Both the position numbers and the translations under genes were made by a program. Of a stretch of 4,627 bases of DNA, positions 1 through 4,627 are shown piece after piece. Under the pieces are notes generated by a model that was given only the letters and a program-made list of their open reading frames with translations, had not been told where the DNA came from and did not search any database. The stretch lies in the IMG/VR virus record IMGVR_UViG_2711768014_000008; one strand, given 5' to 3'. Within the stretch, counting starts at the first letter, position 1, and the number at the start of each line of letters is the position of its first letter. This stretch comes from a virus (Duplodnaviria > Heunggongvirae > Uroviricota > Caudoviricetes).

Positions 1-160
1 GCTTTGAACTCTTTAGAGTAACGTTGGGTTTTTCTGCTCATTATTAGCTCCTTCTGATGCCATTCTATTTCAGGAAGGAGTGTCCGTTAAACTCAGGCTA
101 CCTCAGGTTATTCGCTTCTGGGCATGGGCGGATCAACAAATGATAGACGGTAATGCAGAT

Positions 161-181
161 TGTAACGCTCGCGGCGTTACA
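161..181. repeat. Perfect inverted repeat TGTAACGC-N5-GCGTTACA, candidate initiator-binding site (ori iteron)
   Basis: Read directly: tgtaacgc (161-168), tcgcg, gcgttaca (174-181). The same 7-8-mer recurs at 371-389 and 406-412. Confidence 0.5.
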
Positions 182-370
182 AAAAGTGCAATAGATCGCA
201 TCACTTTTATGTCTGGTTTTGCTGATGCGTTAATTCAGGTTGGATGGCTGGTCGAAAATGACGGAGGGCTTTCTCTACCTAACTTTGAACGTCATAACGG
301 AAAAAGCTCTAAAAAAAACGGGCGGTTACAAACGAGCGAGTAACAAAAATACGCGAACTGAAACGAAAAG

Positions 371-389
371 GTAACGCTGCCAGCGTTAC
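371..389. repeat. 19-bp perfect palindrome GTAACGCTG-C-CAGCGTTAC, second copy of the GCGTTAC motif
   Basis: Read directly: gtaacgctg (371-379), c (380), cagcgttac (381-389); a further copy gcgttac lies at 406-412. Lies in an A-rich tract (296-410) inside the linker-coding part of the initiator gene. Confidence 0.5.
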
Positions 390-414
390 ACAAACGGATC
401 AAAAAGCGTTACCA

Positions 415-434
415 GAGGAAGAGGAAGAGGAAGA
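415..434 (+). repeat. Tandem hexamer (GAGGAA)x3 plus GA, encoding an EEEEEE acidic linker
   Basis: Read directly: gaggaa at 415-420, 421-426, 427-432, then ga. Confidence 0.9.
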
Positions 435-788
435 TCTAAATACTGATCTCCCCCTCGCCAAAAACGAGCGTCTAAAAAATTCGAGCCGGAGGCTATTGAG
501 CTGCCCGATTGGTTGCCGGAAACACTCTGGCATGAGTGGGTCCGGTTCAGACAGGCATTGCGAAAACCGATTCGAACGGAGCAGGGCGCTAACGGGGCGA
601 TACGGGAACTGGAAAAATTCCGTCAGCAGGGTTTTACACCTGAGCAGGTGATTCGACACAGCATCGCCAATGAATACCAGGGCCTGTTCGCGCCGAAAGG
701 TGTTCGGCCTGAGACGTTGCTCCGACAGGTTAACACCGTCTCGTTGCCGGACAGTGCGATCCCGCCAGGCTTCAGGGGGTAACGGACC

Positions 789-1219
789 ATGAAAAATATT
801 GCGACAGGCGGCGTTCTGGAACGCATCCGCCGACTGACCCCGCCACATGTAACCGCCCCATTCAGAACGGTAGCGGAGTGGCGCGAGTGGCAACTTGCTG
901 AAGGCCAGAAACGTAGCGAGGAGATCAACCGCCTGAATCGCCAGTTGCGGGTGGAAAAAATTCTGAATCGCTCAGGCATCCAGCCGTTGCACCGTAAATG
1001 CTCGTTTGCGAATTACCAGGTGCAGAACGACGGCCAGCGATACGCGTTAAGCCAGGCGAAATCCATCGCCGATGAACTGATGACCGGGTGTACAAATTTT
1101 GCGTTCAGCGGAAAACCTGGTACCGGGAAGAATCACTTAGCGGCAGCTATCGGGAATCGCCTGCTGAAAGACGGTCAGACAGTGATTGTGGTTACCGTGG
1201 CTGATGTTATGAGCGCCCT
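789..1219 (+). CDS. DnaC-like helicase loader (phage replication protein, AAA+ family); 3' portion lost in the N run
   Basis: ATG 789 lies 6 nt after the upstream TAA (translational coupling). The 143 readable codons include the P-loop FSGKPGTGKNHLAAAIGNRLL...VIVVTVADVMSA, which matches the E. coli DnaC Walker A region (GKPGTGKNHLAAAI, with the atypical Asn) as I recall it; the N-terminal part is diverged, so this is a phage paralog rather than chromosomal dnaC. Homologs are about 245 aa, so the real stop should fall inside 1220-1607. The track extension to 1727 is an artefact of reading through N. Confidence 0.85.
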
Positions 1220-2607: not shown

Positions 2608-3294
2608 ATGACCCCAATAAACATATTTATGACAGTTGCTGATTTCAAACGGCCCAAATTGGAGCTCCCAAACGGGGCAAACAAACTACTACTGCACTCT
2701 TGCTGTGCTCCATGTTCCGGTGAGGTGATGGAGGCGCTTCAGGCCTCGGGAATCGACTACACCATCTTTTTCTACAACCCGAACATTCATCCTCAGAAAG
2801 AGTATTTAATTCGTAAGGATGAGAATATTCGCTTTGCTGAACAACACGGCGTGCCGTTTATTGATGCTGATTACGACACAGACAACTGGTTTGAACGAGC
2901 CAAAGGAATGGAATGGGAGCCCGAACGAGGGATCCGTTGCACCATGTGTTTTGACATGCGTTTTGAGCGGACAGCGCTGTACGCCGCTGAAAATGGTTTC
3001 AGTGTGATCAGCAGTTCACTGGGCATTTCACGCTGGAAAAATATGCAGCAGGTTAACGACTGTGGGCGGCGAGCCGTCGCGCATTATCCGGGCATGGTGT
3101 ACTGGGATTATAACTGGCGCAAGCAGGGCGGCTCGTCCCGTATGATTGAAATCAGCAAGCGCGAAAAATTCTATCAGCAGGAATATTGTGGCTGTGTGTA
3201 TTCTCTGCGCGATACCAATCTACACCGCAAATCTCAGGGACGCCCTCTTATCAAAATTGGTCAACTCCACTACGGTAAAGAAGAGAAGGAGTGA
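2608..3294 (+). CDS. queH: QueH/DUF208-like protein (putative epoxyqueuosine reductase-type Fe-S enzyme)
   Basis: 228-aa ORF, stop TGA 3292-3294. Contains [11 protein letters not shown] (CCAPC encoded at 2701-2715), [14 protein letters not shown] and EYCGC, the cysteine and NPN pattern I associate with the DUF208/QueH family. No Shine-Dalgarno before ATG 2608 or the in-frame ATG 2629, so the start is uncertain. Confidence 0.8.
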
Positions 3295-3443: not shown

Positions 3444-3693
3444 NNNNNNNNNNNNNNNNNNNNNNNNNNNNNNNNNNNNNNNNNNNNNNNNNNNNNNNNN
3501 NNNNNNNNNNNNNNNNNNNNNNNNNNNNNNNNNNNNNNNNNNNNNNNNNNNNNNNNNNNNNNNNNNNNNNNNNNNNNNNNNNNNNNNNNNNNNNNNNNNN
3601 NNNNNNNNNNNNNNNNNNNNNNNNNNNNNNNNNNNNNNNNNNNNNNNNNNNNNNNNNNNNNNNNNNNNNNNNNNNNNNNNNNNNNNNNNNNNN
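3444..3693. other. Run of 250 N (assembly gap or masked sequence)
   Basis: Read directly. Confidence 1.
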
Positions 3694-4215: not shown

Positions 4216-4569
4216 ATGGCACATATACAACTGGTCAAACAAACCTCTTCCGGATTACTTCTCCCGGCGACGCCGGAGAGTTGCGATTTTCTGCATCAAA
4301 TCAAAATAGGTGAGTGGATACACGCAGACTTTAAGCGTGTGTGTAACTACGCATTCCACAAGCGTTTTTTCAAACTCCTGCAACTGGGTTTCGATTACTG
4401 GACTCCGGTCGGTGGGGCGATCACGCCTCGCGAACGAAAACTGGTGTCCGGTTTCGTTGATTACCTGTGTGAATCAGTAGGCCGGGAACATACGCCAGCT
4501 CTGAGCGAAGCCGCAGAGCAATTGAGGTGTACTGGCAATAGCGGACACTACCATTTGTTCTTTTTTTAA
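4216..4569 (+). CDS. Hypothetical 117-aa phage protein (possibly a conserved nin-region family; not firmly recognised)
   Basis: ATG 4216 with GGAG 7 nt upstream, preferred over the track's TTG 4174. The stop TAA 4567-4569 is formed at the end of a T7 run (4561-4567), so the C-terminus may be artefactual. Confidence 0.65.
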   Translation: MAHIQLVKQTSSGLLLPATPESCDFLHQIKIGEWIHADFKRVCNYAFHKRFFKLLQLGFDYWTPVGGAITPRERKLVSGFVDYLCESVGREHTPALSEAAEQLRCTGNSGHYHLFFF

Positions 4570-4627
4570 GCAGCCATCTGATGATATTTTTCCCTGAAGG
4601 CTGCCGGGGAGATATTCCCCAGACGAG

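Follow-up and report, generated by a model that had tools for sequence, protein, structure and literature searches.

Three mutations very probably disable a ydaU-type replication-initiator gene in a Rac-like prophage remnant of Shigella sonnei

The ydaU-ydaV module and its intact counterparts

The window, by which we mean the whole stretch of 4,627 nucleotides analyzed here, carries part of a phage replication module near its left end. A megablast search with window positions 1-1219 against complete E. coli genomes, 680 of which covered at least 80% of the query, identified positions 105-1219 as the ydaU-ydaV replication module of a Rac-like prophage, with identities of up to 98.8%. Within the phage collection, the match was to ydaU/ydaV of Escherichia phage Rac at 93.5% identity. 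The module occupies the same position as Rac ydaU-ydaV of E. coli, between ydaT/cro-like genes and the DnaC-like ydaV, and DNA identity ranges from 93 to 99% with genes that bear the annotation ydaU or 'phage replication initiator YdaU family protein'. In all four of the E. coli homologs that were fetched, the intact initiator is encoded by one CDS, 783-789 nt long and flanked by a ydaT-family gene and ydaV, where annotation reads 'hypothetical protein' in three of the four and 'phage replication initiator YdaU family protein' in the other. Its downstream partner ydaV, a DnaC/IstB-like helicase-loader gene annotated 'ATP-binding protein' in homologs, is represented in the window by its 5' part (789-1219, plus strand), and the remainder is hidden by an N run. 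The gene is intact, at 248 aa, in S. sonnei loci.

Several other features of the window deserve description. Both of its ends, 1-105 and 4523-4627, are IS600 termini in the same orientation, such that the window corresponds to a 4.4-kb segment between direct copies of the element; the second copy (4523-4627) truncates a DUF1367 gene (4216-4522). An apparently intact gene for the epoxyqueuosine reductase QueH lies on the prophage at 2608-3294, and a small ORF at 2047-2460 encodes two CxxC pairs and, after them, a basic tail that resembles a coiled coil. Two N runs in the window also differ in length from the sequence present at these places in identical S. sonnei assemblies: 1220-1607 holds 388 N in place of 314 nt, and 3444-3693 holds 250 N in place of 287 nt. 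The runs mask a toxin gene of the hok/gef family (13312-13524 in S. sonnei locus L005) as well as the 3' part of ydaV.

Inspection of the initiator region itself (106-782) reveals a gene distributed over three reading frames. When the window is translated, with frames numbered by position mod 3, frame 2 closes at a stop at 341-343, and the open intervals of frames 1 and 0 are 313-648 and 447-779, respectively. When aligned with the four intact CDSs, three plus-strand segments of the window fall colinearly on one intact E. coli ORF. The first, in frame 2 at 106-310, corresponds to intact codons of about 36-103, as also evident from the repair in silico described below. The second, in frame 1 at 319-448, corresponds to intact codons of about 106-148 and includes an acidic linker. 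The third, in frame 0 at 456-782, ends at the native stop (780-782) and carries a domain resembling the C-terminal domain of DnaT at about 502-779. An earlier note on this DNA had described a three-frame layout and had assigned all three segments to one gene; the layout is real upon translation, and the assignment is borne out by the colinearity with a single intact ORF.

The C-terminal part of the protein is best described as a DnaT-like domain on the strength of a sequence match that is weak but specific. Residues 170-262 of the intact protein align with residues 89-179 of the DnaT C-terminal domain (PDB 2RU8, E=9.5e-5, 25 bits; 9ZBT, E=3.2e-4), and the tail of the domain is near-identical (NTVS-PDS-IPPGFRG). 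The match to the NCBIfam DnaT tail model is sub-threshold, at 16 bits versus a cut-off of 201. The domain starts near window position 502, just after the second break, which is where it had been placed from the letters alone. Likeness to DnaT is confined to this C-terminal domain; the N-terminal part is unrelated, and the present protein is phage-encoded and known here by its sequence. A Pfam search with the intact 262-aa homolog at E<=1 returned no match, including to DUF1376 (PF07120). This domain is carried by the 285-aa K-12-type YdaU in locus L010, and the NCBI pipeline calls a 97.8%-identical gene 'YdaU family'. Three papers came up in a literature search on ydaU, the Rac prophage and replication, and none addresses the mechanism of the initiator in its title or abstract.

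Three lesions in the initiator gene

Alignment of the window with the four intact genes yields three differences, namely expansion of an A6 run to A8, a 10-nt deletion and a replaced 5' end. The first of these lies at 311-318 on the plus strand, where the A8 run is 2 nt longer than the wild-type A6 of intact homologs and generates the stop at 341-343. A6 is found in the four aligned intact homologs and also in loci L016, L022 and L023, whereas A8 is found in all 15 S. sonnei-type loci that were read. The E. coli surveys of the A run and of the repeat discussed below used queries of 218 and 241 nt, with ~680 complete genomes covering the region; for the A run, the full-length matches listed were all 2 nt shorter than the query, the best at 98.6% identity. 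In the mechanism that we propose, replication slippage would have expanded A6 to A8, thereby creating the premature stop. The earlier note had sited the first break at this same run, and that position stands; its reading of the run as a contraction from A9 does not, as the run is an expansion of A6 instead. A separate observation concerns locus L015 (AGRD01000018, about 9762-9790), where a run of A9 takes the place of A8 and the 10-nt deletion is present as well, such that the run there is either unstable or miscalled.

In the second lesion, 10 nt (TCCCCCTAAA) have been lost between direct repeats, of which one TCCCCCT copy remains at 449-455 on the plus strand. Intact genes read CTGATC-TCCCCCTAAA-TCCCCCTCGCC over this interval, with the undeleted repeat in the form TCCCCCTAAATCCCCCT, and one unit is missing in the window. 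The same 10-nt unit is absent from all 15 S. sonnei-type loci read. In E. coli, the full-length matches listed for the repeat were all 10 nt longer than the query, the best at 96.0% identity. None of the E. coli matches listed has the exact window sequence, where the lists are ranked and a lower-ranked genome could carry one of the lesions. Slipped-strand deletion would have removed one unit of the short direct repeat.

The second break had previously been assigned to the A6 run at 474-479. This run (plus strand) is wild-type and carries no lesion: it is identical in intact E. coli homologs and encodes KK (AAA AAA) in the native frame, which corresponds to the KK of ...RASKKFEPE... in the intact protein. 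The Rac phage record reads AAACAA at this position. Window frame 0 matches the intact protein (PPRQKRASKK) from about position 450, and the true cause of the second break is the 10-nt deletion at 449-455, about 20-25 nt upstream of the A6 run. Comparison with intact homologs had been expected to uncover runs of A9 and A7; it uncovered A6 and A6, plus an extra copy of the 10-nt repeat. This shows that assigning a frame break to a homopolymer by eye can put it in the wrong place: here the break belongs to a direct-repeat deletion, while the 'slippery' A6 is wild-type.

The third lesion, missed in the earlier count of two breaks, replaces the 5' end of the gene. Window positions 1-105 give no alignment to ydaU; in E. 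coli they match, at 100% identity, ends that carry the annotation 'IS3-like element IS600 family transposase', and the IS600-end sequence occurs there at up to 43 places per genome. They represent the terminal 105 nt of IS600 (IS3 family) on the minus strand, with the ATG of transposase orfA at 41-39. The complete copy in L005 measures 1264 bp, is oriented on the minus strand and carries HTH_Tnp_1 and rve ORFs. The GGT at 106-108 (plus strand) is the right-hand copy of a 3-bp target-site duplication at ydaU codons 35/36, as evident from comparison of L005 with the intact gene: the junctions in L005 read ...GGGAAGGT to the left of IS600 and GGTTATTCG to its right, where the intact gene reads GGGAAGGTTATTCG. 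The element is identified as IS600 by its terminal identity, its length of ~1.26 kb, the presence of orfA/orfB and the target duplication of 3 bp. An exact scan of genome contigs from species representatives for the IS600/ydaU junction gave no match.

The insertion leaves the window copy without a start codon and without its first 34-35 codons. In loci with the exact window sequence, the first 107 nt of ydaU, including the ATG, sit directly beyond IS600, and the ORF that can be called in the window (80-343) begins at a GTG inside the IS600 end. We propose that IS600 transposed into codons 35/36 in one sublineage, with duplication of GGT, and that the insertion moved the promoter, the start codon and the first 107 nt about 1.26 kb away. 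Because IS-free strains (53G type, locus L020) already carry both indels, these most likely preceded the IS600 insertion. The two direct IS600 copies that bound the window could also promote deletion or composite-transposon-like movement of the 4.4-kb segment between them.

The three lesions were then reversed in silico, where IS600 and one GGT copy were excised, A8 was cut to A6, and TCCCCCTAAA was put back. The repaired gene is a 789-nt ORF, the product of which is identical over 262/262 aa to the E. coli FDAARGOS_944 protein WP_038340159.1. A single nucleotide difference, which is synonymous, separates the repaired gene from that of FDAARGOS_944. The damage to the gene consists of exactly three lesions, with no other coding change. 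On the basis of these sequence comparisons, we consider it very probable that window 106-782 is a ydaU-type replication-initiator pseudogene in a Rac-like lambdoid prophage remnant of S. sonnei, disabled by three real and independent mutations. A functional initiator is presumably not made from it.

Occurrence in S. sonnei and competing accounts of the frame breaks

The non-N part of the window is 100% identical to the finished chromosome of S. sonnei FORC011 (CP010829.1) and to three other assemblies, and the identical sequence is also present in several 4.8-Mb contigs from different projects. CP010829 appears in an S. sonnei comparative-genomics paper (PMC5447701). Exact-sequence look-up extended this picture to individual products of the broken gene. 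The 87-aa product of ORF 80-343, which comprises the IS600 end and ydaU up to the A8-induced stop and depends on the IS600 junction as well as on the frame set by A8, was found on 492 contigs (the index lists 481 collection blocks, from which ten loci were fetched). It is named 'hypothetical protein FORC11_0721 [Shigella sonnei]' and 'putative bacteriophage protein [Shigella sonnei]'. The exact 113-aa product, which has the native ydaU start and the A8 frameshift but no IS, was found on 159 contigs; it equals SS53G_2911 [Shigella sonnei 53G] and is common to one E. coli-labelled UniRef entry. Locus L020 exemplifies this IS-free state, with A8 plus the 10-nt deletion.

These counts weigh on the explanation that both breaks arose in a draft from errors of sequencing or assembly at homopolymers and that the real gene is intact. 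The N runs of the window, which mismatch the real sequence in length (388 versus 314; 250 versus 287), suggest that the record may be a scaffolded draft, and the A9 reading in L015 likewise speaks for errors. However, the identical sequence recurs in a finished chromosome and in 4.8-Mb contigs of different projects, and the exact A8-dependent proteins recur on hundreds of contigs. Lesion 2 is a deletion of 10 nt that does not involve a homopolymer, lesion 3 is an IS insertion with target duplication, and the wild-type lengths predicted by this explanation (A9/A7) contrast with the A6/A6 of intact genes. With its prediction failed and the lesions reproducible in independent assemblies, the explanation, which the earlier note had favored among others, is refuted and retains very little probability. 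Because A8-dependent products occur both with IS600 (492 contigs) and without it (159 contigs), sequencing error is, for practical purposes, excluded as the cause of the frame breaks. Genuine inactivation in a cryptic prophage, likewise proposed beforehand, is strongly supported by the fixation of these lesions across hundreds of independent S. sonnei assemblies and by a prophage riddled with IS elements.

The surroundings of the gene show comparable damage. In S. sonnei, the neighborhood is a decayed prophage, adjacent to the mod operon, that contains three IS600 copies plus other IS; the ydaT, integrase and DUF1367 genes are shortened, and IS elements lie among the lysis genes. A further observation concerns the short-read S. 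sonnei draft contigs L010, L013 and L014, in which the same IS600 joins the segment to a K-12-type Rac prophage with recET, kilR, sieB, the 285-aa DUF1376 YdaU and a truncated ydaV. This join reflects either a second Rac-like prophage connected via IS600 or a chimeric assembly across the repeat.

In other loci, the initiator gene is broken by other means. S. flexneri SFBU1023 and ECMA0423, a 4.44-Mb assembly labelled 'E. coli', keep A6 and both TCCCCCT units and carry instead an 11-nt deletion between GGGCG direct repeats (loci L022 6660-7443 and L023 2145-2928, both on the minus strand). The deletion falls in the DnaT-like C-terminal domain and is an independent, convergent inactivation of the initiator gene. 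In locus L016 (UARW01000010, about 9990), the A6 run and the repeat are wild-type, but an extra G (GAGCCGGGAGG) splits the gene.

A second explanation holds that two successive -1 ribosomal shifts, or transcriptional slippage, at A8 and A6 restore a full-length initiator. Programmed -1 frameshifting operates in dnaX and in IS3-family transposases, and transcriptional slippage in Shigella mxiE. In common with these systems, the present gene has A-rich, slippery-looking heptamers that coincide with its two frame changes or lie close to them, and each change is -1 in direction. Specifically, A_AAA_AAC at 313-319 (AAA AAA AAC) and A_AAA_AAT at 474-480 (CTA AAA AAT) are formal X_XXY_YYZ heptamers in the frames used. 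The gene also differs from these systems. The requirement for a shift is not conserved, as every intact homolog examined is a single frame with A6. Sequences 3' of either site yield no stimulatory structure, where predicted folds are no better than shuffled sequence (z=+0.97 and -1.12), and an Rfam search of the whole window at gathering thresholds returned no family. The true lesion 2 lies off the slippery site, at 449-455, such that about 10 residues would be replaced if the frame shifted at 474-480. The start codon and promoter of the window gene have been lost to IS600, and S. flexneri and L016 inactivate the same gene by other lesions. We regard restoration by recoding as highly improbable, in agreement with the earlier judgment that a programmed double shift was unlikely; intact homologs have a single ORF. 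The apparent double frameshift is better described as a triple-hit pseudogene that is typical of Shigella genome decay, and it makes no case for recoding.

A more limited form of recoding can be imagined for IS-free S. sonnei of the 53G type, where a low-level double -1 shift, or slippage at A8 combined with a shift at A_AAA_AAT, could give traces of a near-full-length initiator. We assign this only a very slight chance. A leaky product of this kind could bear a 10-residue substitution in the linker, and, were it made, the origin of the cryptic prophage would be kept marginally active.

The least probable account, in which two or three small genes would exist independently in the native state, draws on gene callers that annotate ORFs of 87 aa, 113 aa and occasionally 89 aa as separate 'hypothetical/bacteriophage proteins' in S. 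sonnei, but it is ruled out by intact homologs. In a region that is covered in ~680 complete E. coli genomes, the CDS runs without interruption in every homolog aligned or annotated and in the Rac phage record, only the three lesions distinguish the split form from it, and none of the homologs examined ends at the equivalent of 343 and restarts as a separate gene. The pseudogenization is genuine and took place in a cryptic prophage, and it represents an ordinary kind of dead gene.

Mosaic organization, intragenic repeats and prophage decay

Comparison with the K-12-type Rac copy (L010) divides the initiator gene into two parts. From window position 525 onward, sequence identity to the K-12-type copy is 93% over the C-terminal part and ydaV, whereas window 106-524 has no DNA match to K-12-type Rac ydaU. 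As no K-12-type match precedes 525, the N-terminal half is a different allele from that of the 285-aa form. The present copy differs from Rac YdaU in this respect and in being a pseudogene with three lesions. This arrangement, together with the lack of a DUF1376 match, suggests that the initiator is a mosaic, where an exchangeable, origin-specific N-terminal module would be joined to a common DnaT-like C-terminal module.

The N-terminal half also contains two 19-nt palindromes of the form GTAACGC-N5-GCGTTAC. GTAACGC-TCGCG-GCGTTAC at 162-180 encodes NARGVT (hairpin z=-3.3), and GTAACGC-TGCCA-GCGTTAC at 371-389 encodes NAASVT (hairpin z=-3.8). The peptide repeat NARGVT/NAASVT, to which the earlier note had drawn attention as a feature of the protein, reflects these two DNA palindromes. 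Six copies of the heptamer GCGTTAC are present in the window versus 0.3 expected, five of them within 162-412. A third copy of GTAACGC-N5-GCGTTAC lies just upstream of the ydaU ATG in all loci that cover that region (L002 1366-1384), which gives three conserved palindromes ~200 bp apart, one upstream of the ATG and two intragenic. Lambdoid origins lie inside the initiator gene. By analogy, the palindromes are candidate initiator-binding or origin sites of the Rac-type replication module.

The acidic-linker region contains an in-frame hexamer repeat, (GAGGAA)n, at 414-434 on the plus strand, the copy number of which varies among strains and intact genes. Measured up to the next GAT, the purine run is 13, 19, 25, 37 or 43 nt by locus and 19 nt in the window (414-432). 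Locus L019 contains dozens of (GAGGAA) copies, next to a gap. The repeat behaves like a VNTR and may serve in typing of S. sonnei, where the three lesions plus the variable (GAGGAA)n repeat provide lineage markers.

Pseudogene formation in Shigella driven by IS elements and indels is a form of reductive evolution. The initiator gene is a typical example of this process and shows no difference of substance from it: multiple copies of IS600 and other IS are present, the indels are of the slippage type, and the gene has been lost independently in S. sonnei and S. flexneri. The small S. sonnei ORFs annotated as 'bacteriophage proteins' are fragments of this pseudogene. That the same initiator was lost independently in S. 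flexneri illustrates the repeated loss of prophage replication functions.
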